Notes: generated from the letters alone by a model not told the origin. Positions 3 to 62,735 are shown, numbered from the stretch's first letter. The stretch: 64,000 bases of DNA from Sphingomonas sp. (GCF_024508665.1 NZ_JANINP010000002.1:36598-100597), one strand, 5' to 3'. Program-made: numbers and translations.

Positions 3-617
3 CCGCGGCTCAAGCCCTACATGGCACTGGCCGAAAAGCTGGGCTCGCTGGTCGGACAGCTGACGCACGGCGCCATCGGCCGCATCTCGATCCACGCCGA
101 AGGCGCGGCGGCAGAGCTCAACCAGAAGCCGATCGTCTCGGCGGTGCTGGCCGGGTTCCTCCGCACGCAGACCGACACGGTGAACATGGTCAACGCGCCG
201 TTGCTCGCCAAGGAGCGCGGGATCGAGGTGCGCGAAGTGCGCACCGAGCGCGAGGCCGATTACCACACGCTGATCCGCGTCTCGGTCAAGACCGAAACCG
301 GGGAGCGCTCGGTCGCCGGCACTCTGTTCGGCGATCAGGCTCCGCGCCTGGTCGAATTGTTCGGGATCAAGGTCGAGGCCGACCTGGCGGGTCACATGCT
401 CTACGTCGTCAACGAGGACGCGCCGGGGTTCATCGGCCGCCTCGGCACGTTGCTGGGCGAATCGGGCGTCAATATCGGCACCTTCCATCTCGGCCGCCGC
501 TCGGCCGGCGGCGAAGCGGTGCTGCTGTTGTCGGTCGACGAAGCGGTCGACGCCGATCTCATCGCCCGCGTACGCCAATTGGCGGGCGTGAAGACGGTGA
601 TGGGGCTGAGCTTCTAG
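3..617 (+). CDS. serA: D-3-phosphoglycerate dehydrogenase, C-terminal part (ASB + ACT domains); 5' end lies outside the window
   Basis: Frame is open from the window edge (PRLKPYMALAEKLG). VNMVNAP..A.ERGI.V and NEDAPGFIGRLGTLLGESGVNIGTFHLGR match the SerA regulatory domains. Confidence 0.93.
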   Translation, partial: PRLKPYMALAEKLGSLVGQLTHGAIGRISIHAEGAAAELNQKPIVSAVLAGFLRTQTDTVNMVNAPLLAKERGIEVREVRTEREADYHTLIRVSVKTETGERSVAGTLFGDQAPRLVELFGIKVEADLAGHMLYVVNEDAPGFIGRLGTLLGESGVNIGTFHLGRRSAGGEAVLLLSVDEAVDADLIARVRQLAGVKTVMGLSF

Positions 618-625
618 CCATCTAA

Positions 626-1049
626 CTCCCTCTCCCCTTCGGGGAGAGGGTTGGGGAGAGGGGCAGTGCCTAAAAAGGACAAACGCCAGCTAGAAAACGC
701 GAAAGCGATGCGCAGCGAGCCGACCGGCCCCGAAGCGCGCCTCTGGTACCATCTCCGCGCGAAGCGCCTGATCGGGATCAAGTTCTCGAACCAGGTGTTG
801 ATCGGCCCTTATACCGTCGATTTCGCCGCGCGATCGCGAAAGCTGGTCATCGAACTCGATGGGGATAGCCATGCGGCGCAGGAACGTTATGACGCGCGGC
901 GAACCGCATGGTTGGAAGAGCAAGGATATCGGGTGATCCGTTTCACGAATTCCGACGTGATGACGAATGAGGCGGCGGTGCTGCAGGCAATCATAGATTC
1001 GCTTGCGGCTGCCCCTCTCCCCGGCCCTCTCCCCGGAGGGGAGAGGGAG
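626..1049. mobile_element. DUF559-carrying inverted-repeat element A
   Basis: 39-bp arms at 626-664 and 1011-1049 are inverted repeats (36/39 by hand). Each arm has a perfect CCCTCTCCCC-N3-GGGGAGAGGG hairpin plus an inward GGGGAGAGGGGC tail. They enclose the DUF559 gene. Mobility is inferred. Confidence 0.7.
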
Positions 1050-1061
1050 AAAGATACATGA
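666..1061 (+). CDS. DUF559 / Vsr-like endonuclease domain protein
   Basis: Motifs T.PE.RLW..LR, KF..Q..IG.Y.VDF, KLVIELDG.SH, YD.RR..WLE.QGYRVIRF.N.DV. Probable GTG start at 666 after GGGGAGAGGGG (track start 651). TGA overlaps the hisZ ATG. Confidence 0.88.
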   Translation: MPKKDKRQLENAKAMRSEPTGPEARLWYHLRAKRLIGIKFSNQVLIGPYTVDFAARSRKLVIELDGDSHAAQERYDARRTAWLEEQGYRVIRFTNSDVMTNEAAVLQAIIDSLAAAPLPGPLPGGEREKDT

Positions 1062-2170
1062 CTCACGCGCTGCTCCCTTCCGGCTTTCACGATCGGCTGC
1101 CGCCCGACGCCGATGCGGCGGCGCGGTTGGAGCGGCGTGTGCTCGATGCGGCGCATGCCCATGGCTATGAGCGGGTCGATCCGCCGCTTGCCGAATTCGA
1201 GGATGCATTGGCGCATCGGCTGAAGGCGGCGCGCGCGCAGGACGCCGTGCGTTTCGTCGACCCGATCAGCCAGCGGACTTTGGCGATCCGGCCCGACATC
1301 ACCGCGCAAGTGGGGCGCATCGCGGCGACGCGGATGGGGCACCATCCGCGCCCGCTACGCCTCAGTTACGCCGGATCGGTGCTGCGGCTGCGCGCCTCGG
1401 AACTGTCACCCGAACGCGAGCGGCGCCAAGCCGGATGCGAGCTGATCGGGCTCGATACGATCGCCGCCGCGCAGGAAGTCGTCGCCGTCGCGGTCGAAGC
1501 GCTCGAAGCGGCCGGAGTGACCGGCATCTCGATCGACTTCACCCTGCCCGATTTGCTGAGCACGCTCGCCGCAGGCCCCCTGCCGCTCGACGGCGTGTCG
1601 CTCGATGAGCTCGCCGATCGGCTCGATGCCAAGGATGCCGGTGCGGTCGCGGCGCTGGCGCCGAGCTACCTGCCGATGATCGAGGCAGCCGGACCGTTCG
1701 AAGCAGCGCACGACCGTCTCTGCCGGTTCGATGTCGGTGGCGCGCTGCGCTCGCGGCTCGACGGATTGTGGAAGGTGGCCGAGGCGGTCAAAGGCCGTGT
1801 CGCGCTGACGCTCGATCCGACCGAGCGCCACGGCTTCGAATATCAGACCTGGCTCGGCTTCTCGCTATTCGCCGACGGCGCGCGCGGCGAGATCGGGCGT
1901 GGCGGCAGCTATATGATCGTCCATGAGGATGGCAGTGAGGAAACCGCGATCGGTTTCACGCTGTACATCGACGCGATCGTCGCGGCGGGGCTGACGCACG
2001 ACGAGCGGCGGCGATTGTTCGTGCCGTTGGGCAGCGATCCGGCGTTGGCGGCCAAGTTGCGCAGCGAAGGCTGGGTGACGGTTGCAGCCTTGGAGGCAGG
2101 TGACACGCCCGAGGCGCAGCTCTGTACGCATGTTTTATCAGGTGGTGAGGTTCGCACGATCACCACATAA
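1058..2170 (+). CDS. hisZ: ATP phosphoribosyltransferase regulatory subunit
   Basis: LLPSGFHDRLP, LAIRPDITAQVGRIA, RLSYAGSVLR, ERRQAGCELIG, GRGGSY; conserved position upstream of purA. Confidence 0.93.
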   Translation: MTHALLPSGFHDRLPPDADAAARLERRVLDAAHAHGYERVDPPLAEFEDALAHRLKAARAQDAVRFVDPISQRTLAIRPDITAQVGRIAATRMGHHPRPLRLSYAGSVLRLRASELSPERERRQAGCELIGLDTIAAAQEVVAVAVEALEAAGVTGISIDFTLPDLLSTLAAGPLPLDGVSLDELADRLDAKDAGAVAALAPSYLPMIEAAGPFEAAHDRLCRFDVGGALRSRLDGLWKVAEAVKGRVALTLDPTERHGFEYQTWLGFSLFADGARGEIGRGGSYMIVHEDGSEETAIGFTLYIDAIVAAGLTHDERRRLFVPLGSDPALAAKLRSEGWVTVAALEAGDTPEAQLCTHVLSGGEVRTITT

Positions 2171-2176
2171 CCCAAT

Positions 2177-2263
2177 CGTCACCCCGGACTTGTTCCGGGG
2201 TCCAACGAGCCTCAGGCAGTGCGCCCGCGGATGGTTGGATGCCGGAACAAGTCCGGCATGACG
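2177..2263. repeat. CGTC-tagged REP doublet (inverted pair)
   Basis: CGTCACCCCGGACTTGTTCCGGGGTCCA at 2177-2204 and TGGATGCCGGAACAAGTCCGGCATGACG at 2236-2263. Confidence 0.9.
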
Positions 2264-2285
2264 AACTGAAGCGAAGGAATAGCAA

Positions 2286-3587
2286 GTGGCCAACGTAGCC
2301 GTGATCGGCGCCCAATGGGGTGACGAAGGCAAGGGCAAGATCGTCGACTGGCTGTCGGAGCGCGCCGACGTCGTCGTCCGCTTCCAGGGCGGGCACAATG
2401 CCGGCCACACGCTCGTCATCGACGGCAAGACCTATAAGCTGGCCCTCCTGCCATCGGGCGTCGTGCGCGGCACGCTGAGCGTGATCGGCAACGGCGTGGT
2501 ATTCGACCCCTGGCATTTCCGCGACGAAGTCACGCGGATCGCCGAACAGGGGATCAAGGTCACGCCCGAACTTCTCCACGTTGCCGAGACCGCGCCGCTG
2601 ATCCTGCCGCTGCACCGCGATCTCGACGCGCTGCGCGAGGACGCGCTCGATGCGGGCAATTCCGGGCAGAAGATCGGCACCACGCGCCGCGGGATCGGCC
2701 CGGCCTATGAGGACAAGGTTGGTCGTCGCGCGATCCGCATCTGCGATCTTGCCCATCTCGATCAATTGGGACCGCAGATCGACCGCCTTTGTGCACATCA
2801 CGATGCGTTGCTTGCCGGCTTCGGCAAGCCGCCGGTCGATCGCGAGGCCTTGCTGGCCGAGCTGAGAGAAATCGCCGACTTCGTGCTGCCTTATGCCAAG
2901 CCGGTGTGGGTCACGCTCAACGCGGCGGGCGAGCGCGGCAAGCGCATCCTGTTCGAAGGCGCGCAGGGCGTGCTGCTCGATGTCGACCACGGAACTTATC
3001 CGTTCGTCACCTCGTCCAATACGGTAGCGGGCACTGCCTCCGCGGGATCCGGCCTGGGACCCTCGCGGGTCGGATTCGTGCTCGGGATCGTCAAGGCCTA
3101 TACGACGCGCGTCGGATCGGGCCCCTTCCCGACCGAGCAGGATAACGAGATCGGCGAATATCTCGGCACGCGCGGGCGCGAGTTCGGGGTCAACACCGGG
3201 CGCAAGCGGCGCTGCGGCTGGTTCGACGCCGTGCTCGTCCGGCAGTCGGCGGCGGTCAGCGGCATCACGGGGATCGCGCTCACCAAGCTCGACATCCTCG
3301 ACGGGCTCGACGAGATCAAGATATGCACCGGCTATCGCCTGGGCGACAAGACCTACGACTATCTGCCCCCGCACCCGCTCGATCAGGCGTCGGTGGAGCC
3401 GATCTACGAAACGGTGCCCGGCTGGTCTGAATCGACCGCCGGCGCGCGCAGCTGGGCGGAACTGCCTGCCGCCGCGATCAAATATATCCGCCGCATAGAG
3501 GAACTGATCCGTTGCCCGGTAGCATTGGTGTCGACCAGCCCGGAGCGCAACGACACGATCCTGGTGCGCGATCCGTTTGCGGACTGA
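2286..3587 (+). CDS. purA: adenylosuccinate synthase
   Basis: [57 protein letters not shown]. Confidence 0.98.
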
Positions 3588-3624
3588 TCCGGCTTCAGTA
3601 GACCCCGAGCAAATTGAAGAGATA

Positions 3625-3676
3625 GGGCCTGCCCCCGCAGCCAGTGCACGCCAGCACCGGCCACGAGGACAGGCCC
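3625..3676 (-). terminator. long minus-strand hairpin in the 3' region of the TPA-repeat gene (terminator or structured 3' UTR)
   Basis: The minus strand folds into about 23 bp with several G-U pairs that are A-C mismatches on the plus strand. The U-tract is weak. Confidence 0.5.
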
Positions 3677-3739
3677 ATTAGCCCCGACGGACCGCGCCTG
3701 GTCGGGCACGATCCGATTGCATGGGGTGGGCTGGGGCTA

Positions 3740-4048
3740 TCAGTGCTTCTTTTTCTTCTTCTTGCCGGTATCCGCCGACATGTCGGTCGACGCTGACGTA
3801 TCGGACGTCGCGGTCGTATCCGTCGTAGTCGACGGTGTCGTGGCGGAATCGGGGGTTGTGCTCGGCGCCGTCGCGTCGGGCACAGCAGGGGTGGCTGGGG
3901 TGGCCGGCGTCGCAGGGGTTGCCGGGGTACCCATCGAGCCAGGCGTTGCCGGCGTAGCCGGCGTTGCGGGAGTCGCCGGGGTGGTTTGCGCCACCGCAAC
4001 TCCCGAGACGCCGATGATCAAGGCGCCTGCAAGCATGACAAGCTTCAT
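3740..4048 (-). CDS. small secreted low-complexity protein (TPA repeats, poly-Lys tail)
   Basis: Signal peptide MKLVMLAGALIIGVSGVAVA, (TPA)n repeats, T/S/D-rich region, KKKKKKH end; GGAGAG RBS upstream. Confidence 0.8.
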   Translation of the reverse strand: MKLVMLAGALIIGVSGVAVAQTTPATPATPATPATPGSMGTPATPATPATPATPAVPDATAPSTTPDSATTPSTTTDTTATSDTSASTDMSADTGKKKKKKH

Positions 4049-4082
4049 TCGATACTCTCCTGTCCTGAATGGACCGAAGAGG

Positions 4083-4107
4083 AAAAGGCTCAGTAACTAA
4101 AAGGCTC
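4083..4107. promoter_or_regulatory. AAAAGGCTC direct repeat (16-bp period) upstream of the TPA-repeat gene
   Basis: Identical 9-mers at 4083-4091 and 4099-4107. A regulatory role is inferred only. Confidence 0.3.
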
Positions 4108-4187
4108 CGTCGCCGGGGGTCGTTACATCCACGGAATCGAACGGCTTGCCGGTGATTGAGCCTCTATCGGGACTAACCGACGGAAAC

Positions 4188-5264
4188 TCAGCCGTTTTGC
4201 GCGCGATGCAGCAGCTTCTGGTCGGCCAGAACCAATGCCACCATGGCTTCGACGACTGGCACGCCGCGAATGCCGACGCACGGATCGTGCCGCCCCTTGG
4301 TGCGGATGTCGGTCGCATCGCCGTCACGCGTGATCGTTTCGACCGGGGTCAGGATCGAACTGGTCGGTTTGAACGCGACGCGCACACGCACGGGCTGTCC
4401 AGTGGAAATGCCCCCGGCGATGCCACCGGCGTGATTGGACAGGAAATGCGGGCCGCCGGTCTGGTTGCTGCCCGGCCGCATGGCATCGGCATTCTCCTCG
4501 CCGGTCAGCGTCGCGGCGGCGAAGCCGTCCCCGATCTCGACGCCCTTGACCGCGTTGATCCCCATACAGGCATGCGCGAGTTCGGCATCGAGCTTGGCGT
4601 AAAGCGGCGCGCCCCAGCCGGGTGGCACCCCGGTCGCCTCGCAGGCAATCACCGCGCCGAGCGACGATCCTGCCTTACGCGCGTCGTCGACCAGCTTTTC
4701 CCAGCGCGCAGCTGCCTTGGCGTCGGGACAGAAGAACGGGTTATTGTCGATCTCGGCCGGATCGAACCGCGCATGGTCGATCGCATCGCCGCCGATCGCC
4801 TCAACCCAGGCAAGGATCGAGACTTCCGGAATGACCAGCCGCGCGACCGCACCCGCCGCGACCCGGCTCGCGGTCTCGCGCGCCGACGAGCGACCGCCGC
4901 CACGATAGTCGCGGAAGCCATATTTGGCGTCATAGGCGTAATCGGCATGGCCAGGACGATAAGCCTGCGCCACTTCCGAATAGTCCTTCGACCGCTGGTC
5001 GAGATTCTCGATCATCAGGCTGATCGGCGTGCCGGTGGTGCGGCCTTCGAACGTGCCCGACAGGATGCGTACGCGGTCCGGCTCCTGGCGCTGCGTGGTG
5101 AAGCGCGACTGGCCCGGACGGCGGCGGTCGAGGAACGGCTGGATATCGTCTTCGCTCAGGCTCAGCCCCGGCGGACAACCATCGACAACCGCGCCGATCG
5201 CGGGACCGTGACTCTCCCCCCAGGTGGAGAAGCGAAAGACGTGGCCGAAGGAGTTGTAGCTCAT
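4188..5264 (-). CDS. aroC: chorismate synthase
   Basis: [45 protein letters not shown]. True start at 5264; the track extension to 5339 is repeat-derived. Confidence 0.97.
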
Positions 5265-5662
5265 TGACCCCTCTCCCCTTGAGGGAGGCTCGGCGCAGCC
5301 GAGTGGGAGGGTGAGGGGTCGAGTGCTTCGCGAACGCACGCCACTACGCCGTCCGGATTCCGCACCACATCGTCGTTCGAAAACCGGATCACCCGAAACC
5401 CTTCGCTTTCGAGCCGCGCGGTACGCCGCTCATCATAATCCTGCTGATGCGCATGCGTGTCCCCGTCAACCTCGATAACGAGCTTCGCCGCGGCACAATA
5501 GAAGTCGACAAGATAACCGCAGAGCCACGTCTGCTTACGGATCTTGGCATCCGCGATCTGACGGTTACGCAACGCTGACCAGAGTTTCTTTTCCGGCTCG
5601 GTCGGCTCGTGCCTCACCCGGCGCTGGAATTCGAGCGGCTCTTCGCCAGGCGGTCGCTTCAT
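5261..5662 (-). CDS. DUF559 / Vsr-like endonuclease domain protein (second copy)
   Basis: [53 protein letters not shown]. About 47% identical to copy 1 over 101 aa by hand. TGA overlaps the aroC ATG. Confidence 0.88.
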
Positions 5663-5726
5663 CTCCCCCTCACCCTCCCACCGCCTTCGGCGGCGGGCCC
5701 CTCCCTCTCCCCTAAAGGGAGAGGGG
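5266..5726. mobile_element. DUF559-carrying inverted-repeat element B (long-arm subtype)
   Basis: Arms at 5266-5320 and 5666-5726 in inverted orientation: CCCCTCTCCC hairpin, an extra inner hairpin (CTCGGC-GCA-GCCGAG or CCGCC-GAA-GGCGG), and a TGGGAGGGTGAGGGG tail. Confidence 0.68.
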
Positions 5727-5733
5727 TTATCAA

Positions 5734-6537
5734 TCACACCAATGCGATATCCGGGGCGTCTTCCGCCTTCATGCCGATGACGTGATAGCCGGCGTCGACA
5801 TGATGGACTTCGCCGGTGACGCCCGAAGACAGGTCGCTCAGGAAATACAGCGCGGAGCCGCCGACATCTTCGATCGTGACATTGCGCTTGAGCGGCGAAT
5901 TGAGCTCGTTCCACTTCAGGATCAGGCGGAAATCGCCGATCCCGCTCGCCGCCAGGGTCTTGATCGGGCCCGCCGAGATCGCGTTGACGCGGATATTGTC
6001 GCGGCCGAGATCGACCGCGAGATATTGCACGCTGGTCTCCAGCGCCGACTTGGCGATACCCATCACATTGTAATGCGGCACGACCTTCTCGGCACCATAA
6101 TAGCTGAGCGTCAGCAGCGAGCCGCCATTCGGCATCATCGCCGCGGCGCGCTGCGCCACTGCGGTGAACGAATAGACGCTGATGTTCATCGTCATCAGGA
6201 AATTGTCGAGCGTCGTATCGGCATAACGGCCGCGCAGCTCGTTCTTGTCCGAAAAGCCGATCGCATGGACGACGAAATCGATCGTCGGCCAGCGCGCCTT
6301 GAGAGCATCAAAGGCGGTATCGAGCGCCGCCATATCGCTGACGTCGCAATCGATCAGGAAGTCCGAGCCGAGTTCGGCGGCGAGCGGCCGCACGCGCTTC
6401 TCGAGTGCCTCCCCCTGATAACTGAACGCCAATTCGGCGCCCGCCTCGGCCAGCTTCTTGGCGATACCCCAGGCCAGCGAGCGGTCGTTGGCCAGGCCCA
6501 TGATCAGCCCGCGCTTACCCTGCATCAGTCCGGTCAT
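5734..6537 (-). CDS. fabI: enoyl-ACP reductase FabI
   Basis: GLIMGLANDRSLAWGIA, YNVMGIAKSALE, RVNAISAGPIKTLAASGI. Confidence 0.97.
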   Translation of the reverse strand: MTGLMQGKRGLIMGLANDRSLAWGIAKKLAEAGAELAFSYQGEALEKRVRPLAAELGSDFLIDCDVSDMAALDTAFDALKARWPTIDFVVHAIGFSDKNELRGRYADTTLDNFLMTMNISVYSFTAVAQRAAAMMPNGGSLLTLSYYGAEKVVPHYNVMGIAKSALETSVQYLAVDLGRDNIRVNAISAGPIKTLAASGIGDFRLILKWNELNSPLKRNVTIEDVGGSALYFLSDLSSGVTGEVHHVDAGYHVIGMKAEDAPDIALV

Positions 6538-61877: not shown

Positions 61878-61883
61878 GCTAAA

Positions 61884-62025
61884 GCCCCTCCCTTTCAAGG
61901 GAGGGGTTGGGGGTGGGTGAGCGGCGGCGGGGGCTCGATGACCCCGTCGTCGCTGGGGTCAGCCGCCGCACGCTCTCTGCGCTCGCGACCAACCCCTTGA
62001 TCCCCTCCCTTGAAAGGGAGGGGAG
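61884..62025. repeat. gene-less hairpin inverted-repeat element between tolQ and tolR
   Basis: Arms at 61884-61918 (GCCCCTCCC-TTTCAA-GGGAGGGG-TTGGGGGTGGG) and 61988-62025. Confidence 0.85.
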
Positions 62026-62042
62026 AAATGAGGCCACCTCCA

Positions 62043-62735
62043 TCACCGCTTCGCCTCCAGCTGGCGGCTCAGCGTCGTATGGAACCCATCCGCAAACCGC
62101 GTCAGCCGCGCTTCGATCCGGTTCACGCCATGGCTGAAGCGGTTATAGGCAATGACCGCGGGGATCGCCGCGAACAGGCCGATGGCGGTCGCGAACAGCG
62201 CCTCGGCGATACCGGGCGCGACCACCGCGAGGCTGGTATTCTGGGCGGCGGCAATGCCGGTGAAGCTCGACATGATACCCCACACCGTGCCGAACAGCCC
62301 GACGAACGGCGCCACCGATCCGACCGTCGCGAGGATATTGAGCCGGTCGGCGAGCTTGTCGGCTTCCCCCGCCACGGCTGACCCCATTGCGGTGGCCAGC
62401 CGCTCGCGAATGCCTTCGCGATCGACCACGCCGCCGGCGGTCGAGCGGCGCCATTCGGACACGCCGGCCGCGAACACCCGCGCCACCGGCAATTCGTCGT
62501 CGCCGTGCAGTTTGTAGAAGGCGTCGATGTCCTCCGCCTTCCAGAAATCCTTTTCGAACTTGTCTATCTTGCGCCGGGTCGCGCCGACCTTGGTCGAGAA
62601 GCCGATGATGATCGCCCAGGTCCAGATGCTGGCGATCAGCAGTCCGGCCATGACGATCTGGACGACGATGTCGGCATGCAGCAGCAGCGCAAGCGGTGAG
62701 GTCGATCCGGGGGAAAGGTCCAAGCTCCAATGCAT
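62043..62735 (-). CDS. tolQ: TolQ
   Basis: SIWTWAII, LATVGSVAPFVGLFGTVWGIM.SF, VVAPGIAEALFATAIGLFAAIPAV.AYN. Confidence 0.97.
   Translation of the reverse strand: MHWSLDLSPGSTSPLALLLHADIVVQIVMAGLLIASIWTWAIIIGFSTKVGATRRKIDKFEKDFWKAEDIDAFYKLHGDDELPVARVFAAGVSEWRRSTAGGVVDREGIRERLATAMGSAVAGEADKLADRLNILATVGSVAPFVGLFGTVWGIMSSFTGIAAAQNTSLAVVAPGIAEALFATAIGLFAAIPAVIAYNRFSHGVNRIEARLTRFADGFHTTLSRQLEAKR

Follow-up and report, generated by a model that had tools for sequence, protein, structure and literature searches.

The window analyzed here, a stretch of 64,000 nucleotides from the genome of a Sphingomonas sp. (GCF_024508665.1, NZ_JANINP010000002.1:36598-100597; genome size 4.64 Mb, 65% G+C), contains two small genes for DUF559 nucleases, each set between hairpin-forming repeat arms. 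Both of these cassettes lie at the junction of two co-directional housekeeping genes, cassette A between serA and hisZ and cassette B between fabI and aroC. In both, the open reading frame (ORF) of the nuclease runs through the downstream arm and ends in a stop codon that overlaps the start codon of the following gene.

Anatomy of the Two Cassettes

Cassette A follows serA (D-3-phosphoglycerate dehydrogenase) on the plus strand. The 3' part of this gene (3..617; Pfam PGDH_inter and ACT domains) ends with the stop codon TAG 615-617, in a frame identical to that of the nuclease ORF. The left arm (620..666, +) is a 47-nt inverted repeat, I1, 89% complementary to 1009-1055. It comprises the hairpin CCCTCTCCCC-TTCG-GGGGAGAGGG at 628-650 and the G-run GGGGAGAGGGG at 653-663, a putative Shine-Dalgarno (SD) sequence for the nuclease start; its RNA fold has an energy of -34 kcal/mol, and the motif GGGGCAGTG is kept among orthologues. 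The nuclease gene (666..1061, +; PF04480, E 1e-36, 125.6 bits) likely begins with GTG 666, TTG 651 being the alternative. Its domain covers approximately 684-1004, and from about 1010 onward the protein has a tail, ending in ...AAAPLPGPLPGGEREKDT, that is specified by the right arm (1009..1055, +), a C-run followed by the hairpin CCCTCTCCCC-GGA-GGGGAGAGGG at 1025-1047. The stop codon TGA 1059-1061 overlaps the ATG 1058-1060 of hisZ (ATP phosphoribosyltransferase regulatory subunit; 1058..2170, +) as ATGA, and the 3' G-run of the right arm is the sole SD-like run ahead of hisZ.

Cassette B has the same layout on the minus strand. Upstream lies fabI (enoyl-ACP reductase; 5734..6537, -; Pfam adh_short_C2, E 3e-89), followed by a left arm with two hairpins (5666..5727, -; inverted repeats and RNA folds), the nuclease gene (5261..5737, -; PF04480, E 6e-35, 119.8 bits) and aroC (chorismate synthase; 4188..5264, -). 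The right arm (5267..5318, -; inverted repeats I14 and I24, RNA fold z = -3.1) is translated as the C-terminal tail of the nuclease, its hairpin stops 3 nt short of the aroC ATG, and the nuclease stop TGA 5263-5261 overlaps ATG 5264-5262 of aroC, again as ATGA. There are two candidate starts for nuclease B. One is ATG 5662, directly preceded by the inner G-run GAGGGGGAG of the left arm. The other, GTG 5737-5735, came out of a census of ORFs that bridge such junctions; it sits in overlap on the fabI stop TGA 5736-5734, and the left arm is read through in frame from it. Copy B thus forms a single relay ORF, reaching from the stop codon of fabI to the start codon of aroC, a point that a preliminary description of this DNA, drawn from the sequence alone, had missed. 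As the Pfam alignments of HisZ (tRNA-synt_His) and AroC (Chorismate_synt, E 4e-135) open at profile position 1 with residues 9 and 10, respectively, ATG 1058 and ATG 5264 can be regarded as the true starts of the host genes.

In other respects the anatomy given in the preliminary description holds. It had read both nuclease ORFs through their right arms onto the ATG of hisZ and of aroC, had located the nearest SD-like run of each host gene in the 3' strand of the arm hairpin, and had proposed that the inward tail of the other arm supplies the nuclease with an SD sequence of its own, for which the G-runs GGGGAGAGGGG and GAGGGGGAG stand before the starts of A and B. It had also pointed to a gene-less copy of the arms with an SD-like run before tolR, and GGGAGGGG is indeed found there, 7 nt upstream of the tolR GTG (61877) and 13 nt upstream of its ATG (61871). 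Throughout, each arm contains a hairpin in which a loop separates a C-run from a G-run, and the terminal inverted repeats measure about 47-60 nt. The SD-like G-run before the host start sits in the 3' strand of a stable hairpin and is paired in RNA folds. Neither cassette supplies a stop codon itself; the frame remains open across the arm and ends at the TGA within the native NTGA of the host gene.

Conservation at the Orthologous Sites

To place these overlaps in context, 61 related genomes were searched; 42 of them gave a DUF559 match, yielding 130 distinct DUF559 loci, of which 124 were intact copies and were used for counts of residues and upstream starts. Further copies came from a public genome collection, queried with a single DUF559 protein. 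The counterpart of nuclease A in S. mali NBRC 15500, located at the corresponding site, is 91% identical to it, and orthologues with 51-71% identity lie between serA and hisZ in 17 genomes of the genus. Fifteen of these 17 end in ATGA, GTGA, TTGA or TAATG; in the remaining two, the stop either abuts the start or precedes it by 10 nt. With further copies from Sphingomonas and related organisms, five of six of which keep the overlap, the total for the hisZ site is 20 of 23, and at fabI|aroC the NTGA end is present in six of seven occupied genomes. Enrichment of the overlap across homologous loci, which the preliminary description had named as a test of its proposal, is therefore borne out, and the phase of the frame is kept through insertions and deletions. 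The distance from a domain anchor to the hisZ start takes 11 distinct values between 83 and 194 nt, nine of them in the same phase (p = 0.0014). Since 3, 4, 5, 7, 10 or 17 nt separate the hairpin from the start at this site, the hairpin is translated in different frames in different species, though the end of the ORF on the start codon is kept. In three orthologues that have lost the right arm (L007, L020, L013), the NTGA is retained.

Occupancy of both sites is patchy. Among the 61 genomes searched, a hisZ match was obtained in 36 Sphingomonas genomes, of which 17 have a filled and 19 an empty or rearranged hisZ site; G021, whose hisZ is the closest, has an empty site, and clean empty aroC sites exist in several close relatives. 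In the relatives with an empty site, hisZ begins with NTGA (Met-Thr or Met-Ser) at all 19 sites, 18-23 nt past serA. In cassette-free genomes, the native junction of fabI and aroC is an overlap of the form ATGA or GTGA (L246, L250, L251), and NTGA is native at 20 of 20 empty aroC sites. As the NTGA is present in genomes without the cassette, its TGA belongs to the host, and at aroC the cassette appears from this comparison to have taken over a pre-existing coupled junction. The proposal that the element is operon-neutral through portable ribosome-binding sites at its ends is supported in part: by comparison, the juxtaposition of stop and start is kept and the G-run is SD-like, but the ATGA is a native part of the host rather than borne by the element. 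The host genes hisZ and aroC start with 13 ATG, 6 GTG and 4 TTG where a cassette is present and with 33, 6 and 0 where it is not (p = 0.017). This shift would fit weaker independent initiation of a coupled host gene; as the loci are related, it is only suggestive.

Other small ORFs occupy the same two junctions in some relatives. At the empty serA|hisZ site of L062 and L065, the native 18-nt spacer reads as a six-codon mini-ORF, ATG GCT AAG GGG CAG GCA TGA, that opens 1 nt past the stop of serA and closes on the ATGA of hisZ, a natural relay ORF free of repeats. Between fabI and aroC, L247, L253 and L254 have a different small ORF that ends in ...HWEDLDEDISI..GRGDMTR with an NTGA on aroC; by its look, it may be DUF2442-like.

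Recurrence at Other Genes and Mobility

In the whole collection, 47 of the 130 cassettes (36%; 42 genomes) overlap a co-directional housekeeping gene, stop on start, by 4 nt or 1 nt, and a further 15 end 3-12 nt from a start. For ordinary genes, represented by 3269 confident genes of the window's own genome only, overlaps amount to at most 341 (at most 10.4%) and the 3-12 nt class to 4.6% (p = 4e-14). The cross-genome count that the preliminary description had called for thus comes out clearly above this baseline. When the loci are grouped into 49 site clusters, 12-13 of these have an overlap, against 10% expected (p = 0.004), and 16 of the 28 sites next to a start fall in the overlap frame class, against an expected one third (p = 0.008). 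By NCBIfam matches from their first residues, the host genes include dnaG, the C-terminal part of pntA, ruvC, glyS, lpdA, sufC, trpA, nadB and folC; in two genomes, nucleases of the hisZ lineage stand before trpA and likewise end in ATGA.

Outside the genus, nine genome records, most of them labelled Bradyrhizobium (L213, L216, L219, L221-L223, L225, L226, L233), have a DUF559 gene that ends with ATGA on livF, the gene for the ATPase of an ABC transporter of branched-chain amino acids. In a second, larger Bradyrhizobium lineage the DUF559 stop lies inside the right arm, and a DUF559 copy of Rhodopseudomonas abuts glyS.

The chromosome of G030 carries three cassettes (L150, L152, L155), 96-97% identical, at three sites, a near-identity that points to recent mobility. 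These copies remain alike for about 50 nt past the hairpins, and an outer inverted repeat (GAAGCGG.CATTG... / ...CCAATGTCCGC) is part of the shared sequence; a target-site duplication was looked for in the three copies, and none was seen. In a further locus of this genome, L099 (G030:C1:2676225-2676599), the DUF559 frame stays open for 366 nt beyond the domain into lipoamide-dehydrogenase-like sequence, possibly an in-frame insertion inside a gene.

Gene-less Arms and Relay ORFs

In the window's own genome, about 280 hairpins of the arm type are present, and all seven nuclease genes (7/7) are flanked by arms. The elements are not tandem; they measure about 440-480 bp with a nuclease gene, and gene-less inverted pairs 100-240 bp. 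Forty-five hairpins lie within 7 nt ahead of a coding start, four times the density at 8-40 nt. At 20 junctions, a hairpin-containing ORF extends from the upstream stop to a position on or next to the downstream start; 19 of these relay ORFs are gene-less, for example those at yebC|ruvC, trpB|trpA and tolQ|tolR, and the twentieth is nuclease B. Where the host gene at a hairpin junction starts with NTGA, the stop of the gene upstream is in relay phase in 13 of 18 cases (p = 0.0009). A similar arrangement recurs at the upstream end of the full cassettes: among the 124 intact copies in relatives, 32 have an in-frame start on or beside the upstream stop, and in 24 the ORF start overlaps the stop of the upstream gene.

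The gene-less pair at tolQ|tolR lies within the window (61879..62046, -), with hairpins at 61885-61906 and 62002-62023. Its 55-codon relay ORF, also missed in the preliminary description, starts with GTG 62046 or ATG 62043 in overlap with the tolQ stop 62045-62043 and ends with TAG 61881-61879, 1 nt ahead of the tolR GTG 61877. At glyQ|glyS (contig C3 of the same genome, around 343,615), a solo hairpin (CCTCCCCGCTCGCGGGGAGG) is bordered on one side by an ATG in overlap with the glyQ stop (TGATG) and on the other by the conserved N-terminus of GlyS, all in one frame, so that this protein may carry a repeat-encoded extension of 15 residues.

The Nuclease Protein

Nucleases A and B belong to DUF559/PF04480, a family with the Vsr-like PD-(D/E)xK fold; both score above the gathering cut-off of 20.6 bits, and in a Pfam scan only PF04480 and MTES_1575 (PD-(D/E)xK) match the nuclease proteins. 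Numbered on the 136-residue copy A protein starting at TTG 651, the residues D57, E68, D70, H74, D81 and R84, of the D...ExD..H type, are each at least 98% conserved over the 124 intact copies from 42 genomes, and E68, D70 and R84 are invariant. The AlphaFold model of nuclease A has a predicted local distance difference test (pLDDT) score of 85.6. In Foldseek searches it matches 3hrl, a DUF559 protein (1e-8), 3r3p (6.4e-5; TM 0.56-0.72) and the Vsr structures 1cw0 and 1vsr; a sequence profile (hmmsearch) likewise finds 3hrl and, at E 3.9e-5, 3r3p, the catalytic domain of I-Bth0305I.

Between hisZ-site orthologues, the ratio of nonsynonymous to synonymous substitution rates (dN/dS) is 0.06-0.17 for the nuclease domain. 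For the arm-encoded tail it is 0.2-0.9 with a lower dS, the pattern that a sequence would show if constrained as nucleic acid rather than as peptide. A functional peptide in the tail was considered and rejected: the frame in which the arm is read varies among orthologues, the dN/dS is 0.2-0.9, and residues 116-131 have pLDDT values of 53-60 and no secondary structure in the model. The idea that the ORFs are spurious frames of GC-rich DNA was likewise rejected on account of the low dN/dS of the domain and its near-invariant catalytic residues. Judged from this conservation, the nuclease has a selected function of its own, separate from any relay role, and this function is probably the movement or homing of the cassette. 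The identities of the nucleases roughly follow those of hisZ, which also fits vertical descent with losses.

Other Features of the Window

Another inverted repeat, an unrelated one whose arms measure 42 nt (TCGTCACCCCGGACTTGTTCCGGGG...), fills the spacer between hisZ and purA (2176-2264); a similar motif was seen in the relatives L073 and L078. Downstream of aroC, an odd low-complexity ORF of 102 residues at 3740-4048 (-) combines an N-terminus that looks like a signal sequence with PATPATPATPA repeats and the tail KKKKKKH, and its product is possibly secreted.

Relation to Known Systems

What the cassettes most resemble in arrangement are MIRUs (mycobacterial interspersed repetitive units), which insert at start codons and contain a repeat ORF coupled at -4 spacing (Supply et al., 1997, summarized in PMC12548453). 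Both are repeats within operons, located at start codons, with a co-directional ORF whose stop meets the host start at -4, and in both the insertion is thought to be harmless to expression. A MIRU ORF often also has its start on the stop of the upstream gene, as is the case for copy B and 24 of the 124 intact cassettes but not for copy A. The defining overlap of a stop with the downstream start (-4) within an operon is found in copies A and B. However, a MIRU is a tandem mycobacterial unit of 40-100 bp, whereas the relay ORF of the cassettes is a conserved nuclease gene of 130-160 codons between inverted repeats; the cassettes occur in Alphaproteobacteria, and their gene-less derivatives, unlike MIRUs, coexist with a candidate autonomous parent. 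No sequence relation of the cassettes to MIRUs was seen. By this analogy, the cassettes would work like MIRUs without being members of the MIRU family; the relay arrangement matches one already proposed for MIRUs, and the use of a conserved nuclease gene as the relay ORF would be the new part.

Several other systems share single aspects of this organization. The free-standing homing genes of T4-like phages also are small nuclease genes between conserved genes on a host transcript, with stop/start overlaps, hairpins that sequester ribosome-binding sites, and a patchy presence at a given site among relatives. In the phage mobE and seg genes, the overlap is at the start of the nuclease with the upstream gene and has been read as limiting nuclease synthesis (PMC2988022), whereas the overlap conserved in the cassettes is that of the nuclease stop with the downstream host gene; unlike the phage genes, the cassettes terminate in inverted hairpin repeats and are accompanied by many copies devoid of the gene. 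As in free-standing homing endonucleases of the Vsr-like EDxHD lineage, homology to the I-Bth0305I catalytic domain is found together with presence/absence polymorphism at one conserved site. REPIN/RAYT systems likewise combine a single small gene between inverted hairpin repeats with hundreds of gene-less copies, but their protein is a Y1 (IS200/IS605-type) transposase and that of the cassettes a PD-(D/E)xK nuclease of the Vsr fold; moreover, the cassette copies, unlike REPINs, favor sites directly before start codons and carry relay ORFs. The arms themselves resemble the BoxC/TM_ECO motifs in the order of their parts, one pyrimidine run followed, after a loop, by two purine runs (CCCTCTCCCC..GGGGAGAGGG..GGGGAGAGGGG), and in being intergenic and abundant. 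In the study of the BoxC/triplex motifs of Escherichia coli, no connection with mobile elements, with position in operons or with the expression of genes was found (PMC4666352), whereas the arms flank a nuclease gene and abut start codons, and their likeness to triplex motifs is one of sequence pattern.

Precedents for coupling of this kind are the genes VII and IX of phage f1, with a hairpin and -4 spacing, and trpB-trpA (PMC12548453). Classical coupling and the cassettes share the hairpin upstream of the start, the NTGA overlap and the unfolding that upstream translation would bring about, but the upstream partner is a functional partner in the classical case and an inserted, apparently selfish gene in the cassettes. 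In our literature searches, we found no paper describing DUF559 cassettes at stop/start junctions.

Discussion

What can be gathered from these comparisons about the consequences of the insertions? Stop/start overlaps of one anatomy recur at many housekeeping genes, are conserved at orthologous sites and are biased in phase. We consider it reasonably probable, from sequence comparison, that the elements are old hairpin-armed DUF559 cassettes residing at Sphingomonas operon junctions, whose ORF acts as a protein-coding relay that makes the insertion non-polar. In this mechanism, ribosomes translating the cassette ORF would unfold the arm hairpin in which the SD-like G-run is paired, terminate at the host start codon and re-initiate there, and the insertion would thereby be non-polar for hisZ and aroC. 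In copy B the relay would be complete, leading from the end of fabI across the cassette and onto the start of aroC. Such a layout would fit both accepted models of translational coupling, the unfolding of RNA by an upstream ribosome and termination-reinitiation. Coupling and non-polar insertion are supported comparatively; that ribosomes are indeed passed on, and that selection acts on this hand-over, is what we infer from the pattern. The part that seems to be kept is a frame that is open and in phase across the arms, rather than the nuclease.

A number of observations weigh against this interpretation. The arms are free of stop codons in every frame and the NTGA is native to the host, so some of the overlaps must arise passively. 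The upstream end of cassette A is uncoupled, with the nuclease start 33-48 nt past the serA stop. In the own genome, gene-less arms without a relay ORF precede folC, and in G010 (L241) a gene-less A-type arm pair, resembling the arms of the hisZ site and ending ...GGGGAGAGGGCTTTAG ATG, stands before aroC with no start codon in the bridging frame; it follows that, with the hairpin in place, the host gene does not strictly require translation upstream. None of the three recent copies in G030 is located at a gene start, and the association with start codons may thus accumulate by survival rather than by targeting. Finally, orthologous loci are not independent, and the start codons in the site-level tests were assigned by a heuristic based on third-position G+C (GC3) together with N-terminal homology.

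These points raise the question of whether the overlaps need any selection at all. An ORF that simply runs through stop-free arms will reach a native NTGA in one frame out of three, and the overlaps could then be a passive by-product, with neither coupling nor selection involved. The absence of stops from the arms in all frames and the native NTGA at all empty hisZ and aroC sites speak for such an origin, as does the fact that about 30% of the close co-directional gene pairs in the own genome overlap anyway; other frames and spacings also exist, namely +3, +4, +6 and -7 at the dnaG, pntA and lpdA sites. Yet the phase has been kept through at least eight length changes at one site with the arm frame differing, the overlap is retained where the arm has decayed, and the biases among the 28 sites next to starts and the 18 hairpin junctions are left over, so that we regard a purely passive origin as unlikely. 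Alternatively, the phase could be an imprint of insertion, if the element targeted native NTGA overlaps and duplicated the TGA, the phase then reflecting the length of the element rather than later selection. This would agree with the native NTGA of fabI|aroC, where the filled site, GTGA-TTGA...TCAA-TGA, has a TGA on both sides, and with the relay ORFs of the own genome, most of which have NTGA at both ends. It is hard to reconcile, however, with the native serA|hisZ junction, which is non-overlapping with its spacer of 18-23 nt, with left-end stops that differ among the aroC-site orthologues (TAG, TAA, TGA), and with the recent G030 copies, which are without evident duplication and away from starts; as it also leaves the maintenance of the phase after insertion unexplained, we hold this scenario to be distinctly improbable.

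The least plausible explanation, in our judgment a very improbable one, is a translational addiction, in which the hairpin hides the ribosome-binding site of the host gene, the host cannot afford to lose nuclease translation, and the nuclease gene stays for this reason. Intact nuclease ORFs do persist at one junction across many species, and the SD-like run of the host is paired in the predicted hairpin. But about 19 gene-less arm pairs stand at equivalent junctions of the own genome, full cassettes being found at the same junctions in sister species; the closest relatives have clean empty sites (G021 at hisZ, several genomes at aroC); and the dN/dS of the domain indicates selection on the protein itself. 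The same evidence speaks against the suggestion of the preliminary description that coupling favors retention of the element: gene-less arm pairs, with or without a relay ORF, precede essential genes at the same kinds of junction, empty sites are clean in close relatives, and the nuclease domain is under purifying selection of its own. As a mere relay role would not require such strong purifying selection, retention by coupling is left unsupported.

If the relay interpretation is correct, it would provide a testable reason why nuclease cassettes can live in essential operons without polar damage, and it would extend the idea of relay ORFs, put forward for the short MIRU repeats of mycobacteria, to protein-coding elements in another phylum. 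For genome annotation, the arm-encoded tails and the non-ATG starts at such junctions would be real features, not errors. The repeat arms would supply the SD and start context of many housekeeping genes, among them hisZ, aroC, ruvC, trpA, glyS, folC, tolR and dnaG. A wider scenario, which we find rather doubtful at present, is that the cassettes and their gene-less derivatives constitute one Alphaproteobacterial mobile family specialized for the stop/start junctions of operons, with the nuclease as its autonomous partner, and persist because each copy, whether or not it has the nuclease, retains an in-phase relay ORF that passes ribosomes between neighboring host genes. Were they one family, the nuclease would represent the autonomous partner that has so far been lacking for MIRU-like relay repeats.

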